Below, piece after piece: positions 19,054-24,805 of a DNA stretch of 64,000 nucleotides. The notes under the pieces were generated by a model, which saw nothing but the letters and a program-made list of their open reading frames with translations, did not search any database and was not told where the DNA came from. Origin of the DNA: Candidatus Latescibacterota bacterium (GTDB lineage Bacteria > Latescibacterota > UBA2968 > UBA8231); contig OZ241362.1 of the NCBI GenBank assembly GCA_965200315.1, positions 1,952,001 to 2,016,000 of the forward strand. Direction: 5' to 3'. Positions within the stretch are counted from its first letter, which is position 1. Every line of letters starts with the position of its first letter. A program made the position numbers and the translations under genes.

Positions 19054-19872
19054 CTACTTTTTGTCCCATATTATAATCGAACTCGCGGAGGAGCCGCCCG
19101 GCGGCACGCGGGAAAATTCTATCTCGAGATGAGTCTCAGGCACGTGCAGGTCGCTTTCGCTTAGGGGCTGCCAAGTCCACGAGACCTGCCGCCGACTGGC
19201 GCGCTGGTCGATGATCGGGCGCCTCACCAGCCCAATCTGCCATACATCGCCGGCGGCCGGGGGTAGGCTTTGCGCGTCGGCCAGCCTTTTCAACCCCTCC
19301 CAAGGGAAAGCCAGTTCCACGCTCCAGCCCCGGTCGATATCATCCCGTTTGTTCAGGGTGCCCTCGACCTGCACCCCAACCTGTAATCCGGGAAAGCGCC
19401 AGTGCGAAAAAGCCCAGCGCATGGCTCGATAGTCGGAATTCGATCCCCCGCCCAAGACTTCGGGCCGATGCACCGCCAGATCGAACTCCGGCACGTCGTA
19501 GCGGCCGCCGCGCTGATAGGCTTCCTTCCAGATGTAGAACATCTCCGAGGTCGCGCCCAGCGGATTGACCGCCAGTTCGTAATACGCTCCCCGACCAATG
19601 AGAAGCACCCCGGCGTTGTTGTCCTGCCGGACTAACGGCGAAGACTCCTCCTGCACACCCCACACATCGCGATCTTCCATCCAGAAGCCCACGTAAAAAT
19701 TCTGATCGTCCCACAGCATGGCCGCCCGAGTGTCGAAAAGCGAGCGCCGCCCGGTGTGATCCCCAAAGCGCGGAGAGCGCGGTGCCCGAGACCAGACTTC
19801 CTCTCGCAGGTGGCCGTCCACATCAATGGCGTCTTCGCTCCTATGGCAGATGTAGCGCACGGTCTTATCCAT
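19054..19872 (-). CDS. Carbohydrate-binding family 9-like (DOMON) protein
   Basis: IDVDGHLREEVW, TRAAMLWDDQNFYVGF, YYELAVNPLG, GWSVELAFPW. Confidence 0.85.
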   Translation of the reverse strand: MDKTVRYICHRSEDAIDVDGHLREEVWSRAPRSPRFGDHTGRRSLFDTRAAMLWDDQNFYVGFWMEDRDVWGVQEESSPLVRQDNNAGVLLIGRGAYYELAVNPLGATSEMFYIWKEAYQRGGRYDVPEFDLAVHRPEVLGGGSNSDYRAMRWAFSHWRFPGLQVGVQVEGTLNKRDDIDRGWSVELAFPWEGLKRLADAQSLPPAAGDVWQIGLVRRPIIDQRASRRQVSWTWQPLSESDLHVPETHLEIEFSRVPPGGSSASSIIIWDKK

Positions 19873-20707
19873 CCTCGCCCACCACCTTTTCGGAAAAATG
19901 TATCACACTGAAGCGATCCGGGATGTGCGAATCATAGGTTCCGTGACTGGTCCAAGCCCACCCCGGACACACCCGCACGCCGCCTTCCTCAATCCACTGG
20001 AAACGCGAAAAATCCATGCGCCATATATCCCCTTCCCGCGCCGGCAGCGAGCGCCCGTCCGCCAAGTGCTGCAACCCCTGCCACGGAAAGGCGATTTCGG
20101 CGGTCCAGCCCCGGTCGGTGTCGCTGGAATCATTGATGGTGCCGTCCACCTGCACCGCCCATTACAACCCCGGCATGTCCCATTCGCGGAAGGCCCAGCG
20201 CCGCCCGCGCGGATGCCGATGTCCCGACTGCGGTCCTCCGAGGGTATCCACCAGCCGGGTCCCCAGCAGATCGAATTCGGGCAGCTTGGCGTACCCGGCC
20301 TCAATATAGGCGTCCTGCCAGATGTAGAACCGCTCCATGATAGTGCCTAGGGCATTCAGCTCGAATTCGTAATAGCTGTTCTCGCCGGCTATGAAAACCT
20401 CCACATCGTTCTCCTCGCAGATCATGGAATCGCGCGTGGTATAGGTCGCCCGCACATCCGGTTCTTCCACCCAGAAGCCCACATAGAGGTACTCGTCGTC
20501 CCACAACACCGCGGCCCGGGTGTCGAAAAGGCCCGGCCGGCCCGGTTCCTCCAGATCCTCAAAACGCGGCGATTGGGGCACCCGTTGCCACGATTCCTCG
20601 TCGAGGTGCCCGTCCACCGCAATCGGCCCCTTTGCCCGGTAGCTGATATAGTGCTTCAAGCCCTCTTCCGAATAGCCGTATTTACTCGTCATGTACTGGG
20701 CCTCCAC
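19865..20707 (-). pseudogene. Carbohydrate-binding family 9-like protein interrupted by one in-frame TAA
   Basis: ORFs 20162-20707 and 19865-20155 are in the same frame: MPGL*WAVQVDG versus the paralogue FPGLQVGVQVEG, consistent with CAA>TAA. Confidence 0.85.
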
Positions 20708-20737: not shown

Positions 20738-22087
20738 TCAGGAAGCCATCCGCATCGGCATAAGCACGGCAGCGTGGCCTTCCGCTCCCACCTCAAAGTG
20801 AAGGGGGGCCTCACTATGGTCAAGGTATATCCGCATTTCCTCTGCCGAGTCTTTCAGGGCCTCCACAATCGTTTTGAGGAAATCGTGATTGAGGCGGGCG
20901 CGGAATGATTTGCCATCCTCGCTATGTGTCACATCAGCCGGGCAGTTCACCGAATACTCCCAGTCTGGGAGGTCGTCGCCGGGCAGGTCGTCCGCGTTTT
21001 CTCCGGTCTGACTGAACCCTTGGTCCCGCGTCGTTCGCAGCACCAGTTTGCCCTCTGCGCTCGACACCCGCATCTCTACGCTGGGCACGTATTCCCAGCC
21101 GCTTTTCACCCGCTCGTGGCCGCCTCTGAGGAACGGCTCGATCTCCGCCACGCAGGCCATCAGATGCTCGCTGCGCACGACCGCCAAGATCGGACCGGGA
21201 GTGCCGACAGCCGCTTGATACTTGAGATACGGTCCGGGCGTTGCCGGGAACGTCACCCGGCGGCCGTCCGCGGTCTGCAACATGGCCGATTCCTCTTCGA
21301 GAATCAGCGTTGCCGAGTCGGTCTCCGGGATCATTTCAGGGTGCAACGAATCGAGAATCAGCGGGGCTGGCAGCGACGCTAGCCCCTTACTCGACCAGTT
21401 GAGTAGCCGCGAACCGTCCGTTGCGACAACGCGGCCGCCAGCGTCGAGACAGACGCAGTGCATAATGGGCCGCTTGGGATCGTCGCTCGTGAAGCGAGCT
21501 ACGCGACGCAGTCCGGCCAAATCGTCCGGGCCGAGTTTGAAGGTCTGAGCCGTGTTGGATTCCGCCATCGCCATGATCTCCTTTTGCAGGCGTTTGCGGG
21601 CCTTTTGCAGACGGCTCCTTACAGTTCCGGTTTGGAGGTGCAGCAAGTTTGCGGTCTGCTGATAGGAATAGCCCTTGAGGTAGTGGTGGACGATCACGTC
21701 TCGGTGGGGGTTACTCAATCGTCCGATTGCCTTCCGCCCCAAGGCCCTGATCGCCTTCTGCTCCTGCTCAGGCGGTGCCGCGAGGTCGAGTTGATCGAGC
21801 AGATTGAGTTGCGCGATACACCGCCGCTGCCACATACGCGCTTTGTTATCCGCGATCGAGCACAGCCAAGCACCGAATCGCTCGGGCGAGCGCAGCTCCG
21901 CTAGCTGCTGGTAAGCAGCCATGAACGCCTCCTGCAGGACGTCCTCTGCCGCCTCTTGCGCGCCCATCCTGCGAGTGAGCCTCACCAGCAGCCACGGCGT
22001 GTGTTCCTCAACGAGCAAACCAAACGCCGCAGAGTCGCCAGCCGCCGCCTTCTGTACGCAATGTTCCCCATTCCGTTCCATAATCAC
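20738..22087 (-). CDS. ECF sigma-70 factor fused to DNA polymerase III beta-clamp (DnaN) domains II-III
   Basis: Sigma2 AEDVLQEAF...RFGAWLCSIADN; sigma4 YSYQQTA...GTVRSRLQKAR; clamp-like TSDDPKRPIMHCV, VATDGSRL, GPYLKY, LNHDFLKTIVEALK, AAVLMPMR. Confidence 0.85.
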   Translation of the reverse strand: MIMERNGEHCVQKAAAGDSAAFGLLVEEHTPWLLVRLTRRMGAQEAAEDVLQEAFMAAYQQLAELRSPERFGAWLCSIADNKARMWQRRCIAQLNLLDQLDLAAPPEQEQKAIRALGRKAIGRLSNPHRDVIVHHYLKGYSYQQTANLLHLQTGTVRSRLQKARKRLQKEIMAMAESNTAQTFKLGPDDLAGLRRVARFTSDDPKRPIMHCVCLDAGGRVVATDGSRLLNWSSKGLASLPAPLILDSLHPEMIPETDSATLILEEESAMLQTADGRRVTFPATPGPYLKYQAAVGTPGPILAVVRSEHLMACVAEIEPFLRGGHERVKSGWEYVPSVEMRVSSAEGKLVLRTTRDQGFSQTGENADDLPGDDLPDWEYSVNCPADVTHSEDGKSFRARLNHDFLKTIVEALKDSAEEMRIYLDHSEAPLHFEVGAEGHAAVLMPMRMAS

Positions 22088-22157
22088 CCTTATAGTTGCT
22101 TCCGGGCGACAAAGGTAGCCGAAAAAAGGAGCTGTCGGGACAAATCCCGCCTACATC

Positions 22158-22307: not shown

Positions 22308-22367
22308 TCTCCTTCTTCCGTAGAAGAGCTGCGCCGGGAACTCGGTCTTGGCGAAAAAGAAAATTAA
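22308..22367 (+). pseudogene. C-terminal remnant of a YefM/Phd-like antitoxin
   Basis: SPSSVEELRRELGLGEKEN* overlaps the yoeB start. The upstream part is replaced by a GGTGAGACGCCCGCGCAC repeat. Confidence 0.45.
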
Positions 22368-22625
22368 AAGGGAGGACGATCCCGCCGATAGCGAGCGGAT
22401 AGGGGTATTCCATCCTGAATTCGTTGAAGATACTAACCGCAAAATAGCGTTGCGCACCTTTGATCTGGCCGTGCTCCGCGACCCATTTTCAGGTATCGGC
22501 AAACCGGAACCCCTCAAATACCTCCCATCCGGTACTTGGTCGCAGCACCTTACGGAAGAACATCACCCAGTGTATATGGTAAGGGAAGGACGTATAGGTT
22601 TTTGCAGGTACGCTACCATTATTGA
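22348..22625 (+). pseudogene. yoeB: Txe/YoeB toxin, degenerate
   Basis: DPFSGIGKPEPLKY is retained. There are apparent short deletions (EFVED|TNRK), the usual WSRR/EHRL is altered to WSQH/EHHP, and the terminal QVRYHY* lies in another frame. Confidence 0.75.
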
Positions 22626-22685
22626 CGGACCGCACCCTGTGGGCTAAGAGCTTAATGTCGCCGCCTGAGCGGACAATTCGACGGG

Positions 22686-23942
22686 CTAGAAATTATACAT
22701 CAGGCTCAGGTCAATGAAGCTGTCGCGTCGGGTCTCGTAGTGGATATCCGCTTTGTCGATGTTGAGGAGATAGATCGACTCTAGGGCAACAGACCACTGG
22801 TTGGCAATGCGTCGCTTCAATGCAACGGCCAATGCGCGTGTGGCCCGATCCACATCCCCCAGCATACTGGCGACCACTTCGCTGCTCTGGACATCGTTGA
22901 ACGCAAGGCGCACGGCGAAGAAGAGATCGTTTTCGAGCGTATTGGGCGAGCGGCTGGGGGTCGCATTGCGGCCGCGCCCATCGTAACTCCATTCGCCGAG
23001 TACACTGAGGTCGACAGCCGTGCCCAATGCGGAATAAAACGTGTATTCGCCGCCAAAAACGGAAGCAATGTAATCCTCTTCCCTGCCGGACAGGTTGCGC
23101 GCACCAGCGCGCTGAATGGACTCCAGCTTGAACAACCAAGAGCCGACCGTTAGCTGGGCGTCCAGCCCAAACTGGCGGATCTGCTCGTAGTGCTGAATTA
23201 GGGCCGGTGCGCCGCCACTATCGCTACCCGGCAGCAAGAAAGGCTCTCGGCTGGTGCCATTGAATGCGCTCAAGCCAACATCGAAAAGCCCGAAATTCTG
23301 GCTATAGCGGGCGGCGAGATCGATGTGCCGCGCTTTGGCCGCGCTTTCGTATTCGACAGGCTCATCTTCTATTACAAACGGGAGACGCAGGCGGCCATGT
23401 TGGCCGGGAAAAGTGCGCGTCCGGTGATAGGGCAAAACGAAAAATTCCATCACCCCCCAATCGCTGGACCAAGTGCCGTGGACCATGGGTTGCCCCAGTT
23501 TGGTTTCTCCAACCGGATGTTCGACGAGATCGACCTGATTGACGATATCGACCAAGTGCTGCGACTCGGCGACGCCCCAGAACACCTGATCGATACCCAC
23601 GCGCAGCTCCCATTCGCCAGCACCGATCTCTCCGAACAGGAGCAAATAGGCTTCGCGCAAATCGGCATGGGTGCGGCGCGGATCTGAGTTGTCGTAGCGA
23701 AAGAACGGGGCCAGCGTGAGGCTTCTACCCGCGGCGTCTGCGAGATAGAGTTTGGGGGTTGCGACAAAGCCGCTGGCATAGGAGTGCTGGCCGGGAAAGG
23801 CACCGGCTTCGGGAAACCAGCGGCTTTCGGCGTTCAAGCGCCCGGAAAACTCGCGGTCCACCGCGAGTTCGGCGCGCACACTTACAGCGCAAACTGACGT
23901 CAAAATCCACAGCGCACCGACAGCGGCACGGCGTAGCATCAA
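22686..23942 (-). CDS. Outer-membrane beta-barrel-like protein
   Basis: Signal peptide, DLREAY...VFWGVAES...LVDIVNQ, C-terminal aromatic YNF; typical partner of LolA-like/MMPL clusters. Confidence 0.72.
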   Translation of the reverse strand: MMLRRAAVGALWILTSVCAVSVRAELAVDREFSGRLNAESRWFPEAGAFPGQHSYASGFVATPKLYLADAAGRSLTLAPFFRYDNSDPRRTHADLREAYLLLFGEIGAGEWELRVGIDQVFWGVAESQHLVDIVNQVDLVEHPVGETKLGQPMVHGTWSSDWGVMEFFVLPYHRTRTFPGQHGRLRLPFVIEDEPVEYESAAKARHIDLAARYSQNFGLFDVGLSAFNGTSREPFLLPGSDSGGAPALIQHYEQIRQFGLDAQLTVGSWLFKLESIQRAGARNLSGREEDYIASVFGGEYTFYSALGTAVDLSVLGEWSYDGRGRNATPSRSPNTLENDLFFAVRLAFNDVQSSEVVASMLGDVDRATRALAVALKRRIANQWSVALESIYLLNIDKADIHYETRRDSFIDLSLMYNF

Positions 23943-24805
23943 CGCGCTCGTTTCAGCCCGGTTTGCGTGAAATCGCGGTCGTCAAGGTCTGTTTGAAATT
24001 GAAAATCCGCCCAAGTCAGAACGGTGCTTTTCCCGGTCAGATGATTTTCCATCGTCATCTCGCCAGCGCGCCAGTAGCACTCCAAGTACTGCTGGTAATT
24101 GCTCAGGGTAAGCGTCTTCAAATGGGCATTCTTGCGGTCGTAGTACTCCACTTTCCAGATACGCAGTTCGTCTTTGTCGCGCCAGACTATTTGGCGGCTG
24201 TAGCCCGATTTCTTATGGGTGGGGTAGCGTTCGGTAACAGTGCAGATCAAATCACCGCAAGGCTCGTCGCGCAGGTACTTATACGTAAATTTCTCCACGG
24301 CTTGGGCTGTGAGGTCTTCATAGGCAAATTCGCTCCCCATAAAGGAGCCAGACTGATTTGACGAACTGATGCGCTTGACGCGCTTCAAAGCGGGGAGATA
24401 GAGCCATTGATCGTCTGCACCTTCATTTTTCGCGTGTACGAGCAATGCCGTTCCTTTCACATCGCGCGGCTCATCAAACACAAACAGGCTCTTGTCGCCG
24501 CCTTCGGGTACCTCAAGAATCTTTACTCGAAGCTGGCGTTGGCTTTCTTGCCCGTGTTTGTTCCGCAAAACCATGGCCTGTTGGGCGGTAAAGTTGCCAA
24601 AACCTTCGTCGCGTACCTGTGCATCCTGTTCAATTTTTCGTCCTACTTCGGCGGCATCCTCCTGCGCTTGTGCCAGTGGCGGCACCCACAGGCACAGCAA
24701 AAAGAACAAGCAAAATGCGGCGGACAAGCGCACCGAGCGGTCGGAATAAGTACGAGTCATAACATTCTTCCTATCAATGAGATATATAAGAATTAAAACC
24801 ATCAA
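23939..24805 (-). CDS. Outer-membrane lipoprotein-sorting (LolA-like) protein
   Basis: FDEPRDVKGTALL, DDQWLYLPALKRVKRISS, SFMGSEFAYED, VEYYD...LKTL. The true start may be ATG 24760. Confidence 0.88.
   Translation of the reverse strand: MMVLILIYLIDRKNVMTRTYSDRSVRLSAAFCLFFLLCLWVPPLAQAQEDAAEVGRKIEQDAQVRDEGFGNFTAQQAMVLRNKHGQESQRQLRVKILEVPEGGDKSLFVFDEPRDVKGTALLVHAKNEGADDQWLYLPALKRVKRISSSNQSGSFMGSEFAYEDLTAQAVEKFTYKYLRDEPCGDLICTVTERYPTHKKSGYSRQIVWRDKDELRIWKVEYYDRKNAHLKTLTLSNYQQYLECYWRAGEMTMENHLTGKSTVLTWADFQFQTDLDDRDFTQTGLKRAR

Follow-up and report, generated by a model that had tools for sequence, protein, structure and literature searches.

A stretch of 64,000 nucleotides from a Candidatus Latescibacterota bacterium (contig OZ241362.1, positions 1,952,001 to 2,016,000 of the forward strand; hereafter the window, whose numbering is used unless otherwise indicated) carries on its reverse strand a gene that, judged by its sequence, encodes a sigma factor of the extracytoplasmic function (ECF) type, extended at its C-terminus by a module homologous to domains II and III of the bacterial replication clamp DnaN (Table 1). 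An earlier, sequence-only reading of the same DNA had picked out clamp-binding-like peptides in the linker between the two sigma domains, and had proposed that the clamp module binds its own linker and holds the sigma factor inactive until a competing clamp-binding molecule displaces it. Here, the module, its pocket and the linker are examined across the protein family, and the proposed relationship between them is weighed against its rivals.

The open reading frame (ORF) specifies 449 amino acids (aa), starting from a GTG at 22087 and ending in a stop codon at 20738-20740. An ATG two codons downstream, at 22081, is an alternative start that would yield 447 aa; the database copy of the protein (P0002, 447 aa, 100% identical) begins there, and the motif discussed below occupies residues 91-100 in that copy. 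The sigma2 and sigma4 regions both score above their curated thresholds and neither region 3 nor region 1.1 is present, which is the make-up of an ECF (group 4) sigma-70 factor; NCBIfam TIGR02937 (sigma70-ECF) is likewise matched with 80.5 bits against a cut-off of 42.9. Some 30 residues separate sigma2 from sigma4, and a module of about 270 aa follows the latter.

Table 1. Features of the sigma gene and their positions in the window
Feature	Positions	Strand	Basis
Whole gene, ECF sigma factor with DnaN-like C-terminal module	20738..22087	-	ORF list and translation
Sigma-70 region 2, residues 25-89	21821..22015	-	Pfam PF04542 (Sigma70_r2), E 2.9e-12, 46.7 bits against a cut-off of 24
Sigma-70 region 4, residues 119-167	21587..21733	-	Pfam PF08281 (Sigma70_r4_2), E 1.4e-11, 44.3 bits against a cut-off of 25.7
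C-terminal module, residues 181-449, homologue of DnaN domains II and III	20741..21547	-	Foldseek, profile against PDB, BLASTP
Linker motif 1, QLNLL, residues 93-97	21797..21811	-	Core Q-phi-x-phi kept family-wide; contacts in the co-fold
Linker motif 2, QLDL, residues 99-102	21782..21793	-	Close relatives only; incomplete clamp-binding motif
TDGSRL, residues 223-228	21404..21421	-	Equivalent of E. coli beta T172-L177, pocket subsite I
MPMRM, residues 443-447	20747..20761	-	Equivalent of E. coli beta M362-L366, C-terminal strand of the pocket
Promoter-like motif GGCTACCT-N13-GCAAC	22095..22120	-	Ends 7 nt upstream of the GTG; regular expression in orthologue loci

The clamp-like module and its peptide pocket

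The kinship of the module with the clamp emerges from both fold and profile. With the first AlphaFold2 model as the query, the top PDB matches in Foldseek are without exception bacterial beta clamps, the best with E 6.7e-14 and probability 1.0 over about 285 aligned columns, at an identity of 13-19% in these alignments; a profile of 15 family members matches PDB clamp chains with E 6.9e-20, the aligned portions being residues 124-278 and 311-365 of E. coli beta, i.e. domains II and III. BLASTP aligns the module with the genome's own DnaN where domain II begins (E 5e-4), the family profile also picks up canonical DnaN in most genomes of the phylum (~1e-11), and the sub-threshold leads that the ESM Atlas returned (score 0.82) were all DnaN-like. 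A precomputed Pfam match to PF02768 (DNA_pol3_beta_3) exists in three fused relatives; for the module of this copy, Pfam at E up to 1 gives no DnaN family and, in fact, no family at all. Whereas a DnaN has three domains (PF00712, PF02767 and PF02768), the profile and fold alignments of the module span domains II and III only, and the sigma factor sits in the place of clamp domain I. The module is a homologue of DnaN domains II and III, i.e. two-thirds of a clamp, and it is with this qualification that the fused clamp module of the sequence-only reading stands. A separate, canonical DnaN of 387 aa is encoded elsewhere in the genome, adjoining a recF-like gene.

Domain III carries a family-specific insertion with four nearly invariant residues, H324, Y333, P335 and W376, that are missing from true clamps. 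The insertion covers residues 318-376 (~20960-21135, reverse strand), and residues 334, 336 and 357-360 in this vicinity touch the linker peptide in the co-folded model described below; it could be the real signal-input site. A reading of the protein as part of a defence system was dropped, as PADLOC at E up to 0.01 matched neither the module nor the whole protein.

Does the module still possess what makes a clamp a receptor for peptides? In the excerpted text of PMC11139829, subsite I of the E. coli beta pocket comprises R152, L155, T172, G174, H175, R176, L177, P242, R246, V247, V360 and M362, and subsite II comprises H175, N320, Y323, V344, M362, P363, M364 and R365 (PMC11139829). Alignments to the PDB clamps and to the genome's own DnaN place the equivalents of the pocket at R206, M209, T223, G225, S226, R227, L228, L288, A292, A293, V441, M443, N400, F403, P444, M445 and R446. 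When conservation was scored on 46 representatives sharing less than 60% identity, G225 was kept in 39/46 and T223, R227 and L228 in 36/46 each; P or V stands at position 288 in 43/44, V293 in 31/44, N400 in 39/44, M443 in 39/43 and P444 in 41/42. Translated into E. coli numbering, the family conserves the equivalents of R152, T172, G174, R176, L177, N320, M362, P363 and R365, and its conserved interface also maps to P242 and V247. This particular copy departs from E. coli beta in having S for H175 (as does the genome's own DnaN), L for P242 and A for V247. Its pocket is near that of the own DnaN: ATDGSRL is found in both, and two further stretches compare as GPYVNY versus GPYLKY and LMPLR versus LMPMR. 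The cleft is not degenerate, which agrees with what the sequence-only reading had presupposed, and on the evidence of these aligned residues it has kept a peptide-binding pocket of the DnaN type.

The linker motif, its conservation and its predicted docking

The reverse complement of 21782-21811, CAA CTC AAT CTG CTC GAT CAA CTC GAC CTC, translates as QLNLLDQLDL (residues 93-102) in the context CIAQLNLLDQLDLAAP; because it falls between Sigma70_r2 and Sigma70_r4_2, it belongs to the sigma2-sigma4 linker, just where the sequence-only reading had placed it. According to the passages of PMC11139829 that define them, clamp-binding motifs take a pentameric form, Q-phi-x-[L/M]-[F/L], or a hexameric form, Q-phi-x-[L/M]-x-[F/L] (PMC11139829). 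QLNLL, located in an inter-domain linker, fits the pentameric form so defined, whereas QLDLAA (residues 99-104), with A at positions 5 and 6, fits neither. How easily could such a motif arise by chance? QLxL[LF] occurs 133 times in 129 of the 13,708 six-frame ORFs of at least 100 aa in the bacterium's own genome, i.e. at 4.3e-5 per residue; its chance expectation is ~0.02 per 449-aa protein and ~1e-3 in a 25-residue linker, a post hoc figure that is insufficient by itself.

Proteins ending in canonical QLDLF, QLSLF and QLNLF exist in the same genome. A Y-family polymerase-like ORF (G000:C1:955692-956594, forward strand) ends in EQLDLFASEKP, and an ORF of 1068 aa (3402002-3405208 of the genome, forward strand) ends in EQLSLF; from these two ends it follows that the native clamp-binding motifs are of the QLxLF type, close to the QLNLL and QLDL of the linker.

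To follow conservation, 87 fused proteins and 35 other ECF sigma factors were aligned in their sigma regions to one hidden Markov model, 32 fused proteins with less than 60% identity serving as representatives. Q93 is present in 84/87 fused sequences and 30/32 representatives; among the latter, position 96 is hydrophobic in 29/32 and position 94 in 23/32, where it is mostly L94. The published canonical form, as worded in the same passages of PMC11139829, is found in the linkers of 46/87 fused proteins and 6/32 representatives, as QLNLL, QLDLL, QMELF, QLKLF, QLRLF and one hexameric variant, and these are spread over separate lineages. In sequence terms, the element conserved across the whole family is RRR-x-x-Q-phi-x-phi, and some lineages, this one among them, have the full canonical form. 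The conservation in homologues that the sequence-only reading had proposed to check is, in other words, partial: it holds for Q93 and for a hydrophobic residue at 96, and is weak for position 97 (see below) and for the complete motif. Q at column 99 occurs in 34/87 fused sequences, all of them close relatives, and the column varies among the representatives. The linker holds one canonical motif and one four-fifths match, and not the two clamp-binding motifs of the sequence-only reading: its QLDL is confined to close relatives and, continued as QLDLAA, departs from both forms given in those passages.

ECF sigma factors that have no such module lack the motif as well. None of the 35 other ECF sigma factors has Q at column 93 and none has a canonical motif in the linker; among 80 further ECF loci without the module from other genomes, 0/80 have a canonical linker motif and 9/80 have Q at that column. 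The 80 loci came from a scan with sigma-region peptide patterns, proved to be ordinary ECF sigma factors throughout, and served as negative controls. The motif is also absent from the four other ECF sigma factors of the bacterium's own genome whose alignments cover the linker.

The module (residues 176-449) was then co-folded with the linker peptide (residues 82-113), each supplied with a 30-row alignment. The interaction score (ipSAE) was 0.79, 0.73 and 0.72 (median 0.73) and 0.00 in all three controls, unrelated 32-residue partners giving 0.00 in both cases; in the calibration of the tool, the mark was reached by 58/80 solved complexes and 2/110 mismatched pairs. The runs share at least 70% of their contacts, with a predicted local distance difference test (pLDDT) value of 55-56 for the partner. 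The interface is made up of residues 223, 225-228, 288-290, 292-295, 334, 336, 357-360, 398, 400, 426, 428, 441 and 443-449 on the side of the module, and of residues 89-97 and 99-100 on the side of the peptide. Q93 and L94 are placed against M443-R446, S226 and N400, the equivalent of subsite II, and L96 against T223, G225, R227, L228, A293 and V441, the equivalent of subsite I; TDGSRL contacts both L96 and Q93, and the contacts of lowest error are those of the M443/P444 strand with Q93 and L94. The peptide Q93-L97 is predicted, in short, to occupy the cleft between domains II and III in the pose that is canonical for clamp peptides. The 28 scored residues of this predicted interface are better conserved than the 237 others (mean 0.58 versus 0.41, Mann-Whitney p 4e-4), and the interface holds 12 of the 30 most conserved positions of the module. 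In lineages with L97, the pocket residues are A293, G295 and F358, as opposed to V, P and Y in the others; this match between L97 and a smaller pocket in one clade is suggestive and represents a single evolutionary event.

Two full-length AlphaFold2 models, from 30 and 67 alignment rows, reached a mean pLDDT of 82.1 and 85.1 and a predicted template modelling score (pTM) of 0.60 and 0.70, and both give the module a confident, beta-rich two-domain fold. They were judged by confidence and secondary structure only, a scope within which docking in cis is neither confirmed nor excluded.

Family members and genomic surroundings

The family is sizeable, and its genomes in the phylum fall within one class. 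When 1.84 billion cluster representatives were searched exhaustively with phmmer, just 75 matched the module at E up to 1e-3, most of them 440-495 aa long with the module at the C-terminus. Within the phylum, 65/168 genomes contain open frames of 370-510 aa that match strongly (E at most 1.1e-57); these 65 belong without exception to the class of the window organism, and 0/36 genomes from the rest of the phylum are positive. One family member is named from a metagenome-assembled genome of Candidatus Handelsmanbacteria, another candidate phylum, and where members are named at all, they are annotated merely as sigma factor or hypothetical protein. Both the sigma core and the module are carried by 94 of the 167 proteins collected, so that an extension of well over 50 aa is conserved together with an ECF core, as in the ECF41/42-like groups.

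A true split form, with the module on its own, would have favoured binding in trans. Each of seven apparently stand-alone modules (270-306 aa) comes from a contig of 969-3022 nt, every member on a contig longer than ~3 kb is fused, and the metagenome locus L128 turned out to be a fused gene disrupted internally by a deletion or frameshift; given such short contigs, a stand-alone or split module is unproven. M174 (21566-21568, reverse strand), the methionine at the junction between sigma4 and the module, is invariant in the 30-row alignment, and many of the apparently stand-alone proteins, on contigs of up to ~3 kb, begin exactly there. They are probably fragments, an internal start being the alternative. 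Some species of the same family or genus have truncated forms of ~250-280 aa, comprising the sigma factor and the first 60-80 residues of the module (G108:C1:5377355-5377585 and G131:C1:2563696-2563878; P0040, P0046 and P0050), which suggest that the module has recently decayed in some lineages.

Beyond the sigma gene and the ORFs that overlap it, no gene family is common to all 16 loci compared. An anti-sigma gene was not found as a conserved neighbour in these loci, where small or divergent ones could be missed, and no replication or repair gene and no biosynthetic cluster was seen in the neighbourhoods. The neighbours include PhyH dioxygenases, sulfatases and a nucleotidase; in the window there are also CBM9-like proteins, a YoeB-like ORF and a LolA-like/DUF1302-like pair. 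The YoeB-like toxin ORF (22348-22647, forward strand, 99 aa; Pfam PF06769, E 4.2e-15, 56 bits against a cut-off of 27) is divergent to the sigma gene, its N-terminal 24 residues lying outside the Pfam match. Directly downstream of the sigma gene are two tandem CBM9-like genes (19054-20707, reverse strand), the first of which appears to be split into 20162-20707 and 19865-20155, possibly by a frameshift or a sequencing error; this CBM9-like neighbourhood is unconserved even within the genus. At 22686-24805 on the reverse strand, a LolA-like lipoprotein-sorting protein (Pfam E 1.8e-62) is encoded and, after it, a protein of 418 aa that matches DUF1302 weakly; the two look like an outer-membrane pair unrelated to the sigma factor.

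A bipartite promoter-like motif, GGMTACYT-N13-GCAAC or one with a related -10 element, was found by regular expression just upstream of the gene in 12/16 orthologue loci, which suggests that the gene possibly has an autoregulated promoter of the ECF type. Since the motif ends so close to the GTG, the transcript would be near-leaderless, and this favours the ATG at 22081 as the true start, as in the 447-aa database copy. A strict scan of the bacterium's own genome for GG[ACG]TAC[CT]T-N12-14-GCAAC returned 3 matches, against 3-8 in five shuffles; of the 3, only the site of the sigma gene itself precedes a gene, so that no regulon could be derived.

A proposed linker-cleft latch, its rivals and its known relatives

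What might the peptide-binding cleft of a clamp do on a sigma factor? The reading that we favour, with a probability of roughly 0.45, is that linker and cleft form a latch, either within one molecule or between two copies. The extension would be a domesticated two-domain piece of a replication clamp that has retained its peptide-binding cleft, and the linker peptide Q93-L94-x-L96-L97 would lie in this cleft, with Q93 and L94 in the equivalent of subsite II and L96 and L97 in that of subsite I, against the pocket residues listed above for the co-fold. The docked peptide would tether the linker to a bulky domain. Because the linker of an ECF sigma factor has to pass through RNA polymerase, such a tether would keep the protein from assembling properly with the core enzyme until the latch opens. 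The homology of the domains, the conservation of the pocket residues and of the core of the motif, and the docking pose at the level of models are the observations on which this reading builds; that no conserved anti-sigma neighbour was found at the 16 loci, that members on contigs longer than ~3 kb are all fused, and that ECF41 offers a precedent (see below) were also counted in its favour. We infer that the contact would form in the cell, that it would be inhibitory, and what would cause its release.

Several observations weigh against the latch. Position 97 corresponds to the F/L anchor that gives most of the affinity in true clamp-binding motifs, and it is weakly kept: a hydrophobic residue is found there in only 12/32 representatives, and an exact QLxL[LF] at the aligned position in 2/32. 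Motif and module could co-occur by descent alone, the fused proteins being probably one ECF lineage, because the ECF sigma factors used for comparison are distant, at 23-40% identity. The hydrophobic pattern at 94, 96/97 and 100 is equally compatible with an amphipathic helix, and it is as a continuation of the sigma2 helix (68-99 and 68-101), not as an extended bound peptide, that the two full-length AlphaFold2 models draw the motif, with a linker pLDDT below 50 at 96-110 and 97-106, respectively. The pass of the co-fold may reflect memory of solved clamp-peptide structures, of which many are known, and what this prediction shows is likeness to a clamp with its ligand, not binding. Finally, mutual information with average product correction over the 67-row alignment gave no signal of covariation between linker and pocket (the 93-97 window ranks 98/151 at an effective sequence number, Neff, of 37), in a test that was underpowered and dominated by near-invariant columns. 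One proposed check and one claim of the sequence-only reading are hence upheld in part: a model does place the peptide in the II/III cleft (median ipSAE 0.73 versus 0.00 for controls), although the full-length models leave the linker helical and at low confidence; and the proposal that the module binds its own linker and keeps the sigma factor inactive is backed by the conservation of pocket and motif and by the co-fold, but neither by covariation nor by position 97.

The conserved pocket residues could also serve a ligand in trans. According to this unlikely though not far-fetched alternative, the cleft binds another protein, be it one of the bacterium's own proteins with a clamp-binding motif, such as polymerases and repair factors, or partners of the real clamp, and the linker residues contact RNA polymerase or sigma4 instead. 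The pocket is almost the same as that of the own DnaN, the native proteins ending in QLDLF, QLSLF and QLNLF could fit it, and the linker is undocked in the full-length models, all of which speaks for a foreign ligand; what it leaves unexplained is why Q-phi-x-phi stands in nearly every fused linker and a canonical motif in 0/115 other ECF sigma factors, and why canonical forms recur in separate lineages, and no conserved replication or repair neighbour points to such a partner. It is, with similar doubt, conceivable that the linker does dock, yet as a permanent structural brace or a positive element, fixing the geometry of sigma2 and sigma4 or being needed for activity, so that there is neither a releasable latch nor a sensor. 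The evidence for docking serves this idea as well as it serves the latch, and, in the portion of PMC8999054 concerned, part of the ECF41 extension is described as needed for activity (PMC8999054). No signal-input feature or partner was found that would tell for release. On the other hand, tethering the linker to a domain of 270 aa does not fit easily with the path of an ECF linker through RNA polymerase, and the weak anchors at 97 suggest a deliberately modest affinity.

At the sceptical end stands the rather improbable view that there is no peptide-cleft function at all: the motif would be the lineage-specific amphipathic end of the sigma2 helix, the pocket would be kept for the sake of the fold, and the co-fold would be an act of recall. 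The low-confidence helix that AlphaFold2 runs through the motif, the missing covariation, the chance rate of so short a motif (4.3e-5 per residue) and the co-folding tool's own warning about memory all sit well with it. Helix amphipathicity, however, does not explain a near-invariant Gln (84/87), the pocket ranks among the most conserved positions of a domain that has diverged to 15-19% identity with clamps, and both unrelated 32-residue partners scored 0.00.

The latch is to be kept apart from the further step that the sequence-only reading had taken, namely that the protein senses clamp inhibitors or free repair polymerases. As a one-component competitive sensor, it would switch on transcription when molecules occupying the cleft displace the linker peptide as a decoy, and the candidates would be free proteins with clamp-binding motifs during replication or repair stress, an anti-clamp peptide from a phage or toxin, or a griselimycin-like product. 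A pocket that looks as promiscuous as that of a real clamp is compatible with this; nothing found favours the displacement step specifically, and neither the gene neighbourhoods nor the promoter scan show a link to replication, repair or antibiotics, so that the claim was not sustained and we regard such a sensor, and any one of these ligands, as a long shot. Were it true, this would be the first sigma factor to read the occupancy of the clamp network, and a natural biosensor for clamp-targeting antibiotics.

Why should the latch itself matter? Few types of ECF extension are understood so far (SnoaL-like, TPR, Cys-rich), and a clamp-derived extension with a matching linker peptide would, if true, be a new and mechanistically transparent regulatory type. 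Decades of work on clamp peptides already point out the pocket, the ligand motif and the critical residues, which makes the hypothesis directly testable. It would also represent a rare reuse of the peptide pocket of the clamp outside DNA replication and repair, and, should competing ligands be what opens the latch, transcription would be coupled to the state of the clamp's interaction network or to compounds that target the clamp.

A literature search found no paper on a clamp- or DnaN-like sigma extension, the supplement of PMC7826278, which was outside its scope, being a place where such a group may be listed. The available main text of that article, on the 2021 reclassification of ECF sigma factors, counts 19 groups with extensions, names SnoaL-like, TPR, Cys-rich, DUF1835 and transmembrane types, reports that the type of extension tracks the ECF group, and has 0 occurrences of ‘clamp’ or ‘polymerase III’ (PMC7826278). 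The closest parallel is ECF41, exemplified by SigJ of M. tuberculosis, in which, as the consulted part of PMC8999054 has it, the SnoaL-like extension contacts a linker motif and is inhibitory (PMC8999054). Both have an ECF core with a C-terminal extension of more than 100 aa and a group-specific motif in the sigma2-sigma4 linker; a conserved anti-sigma neighbour, lacking in ECF41, was not found here either in the 16 loci compared, where small or divergent genes could be missed. The protein described here is nonetheless no ECF41 proper: its extension has the fold of DnaN domains II and III and not that of SnoaL, and its linker motif, known from sequence and models, resembles a clamp-binding motif and not the linker motif of ECF41.

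The second parallel is DnaN itself with its clamp-binding partners (Pol II, III, IV, V, Hda and MutL). Domains II and III are homologous and the pocket residues equivalent, QLNLL conforms to Q-phi-x-[L/M]-[F/L], and the predicted pose is canonical, with Gln in subsite II and Leu-Leu in subsite I. By contrast, with two of the three domains, the head-to-tail dimer ring could not form here in the usual way, though such a piece could make a PCNA-like trimer, and receptor and peptide reside in one polypeptide, the module being fused to a transcription factor. Extra copies of DnaN are also known as self-resistance factors in the producers of griselimycin and mycoplanecin, and PDB entry 8ciz, titled DnaN-mycoplanecin A, is among the Foldseek matches of the module. 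The likeness is that the genome encodes another clamp-like protein and that the surface of interest is its cleft; the resistance copies, however, are full three-domain clamps that replace the target, whereas here a two-domain module sits on a sigma factor, with no biosynthetic cluster nearby. Set among these systems, the clamp-derived extension would seem to be a new type of extension within the known class of ECF sigma factors with regulatory extensions, and one in which receptor and putative ligand form a legible pair.

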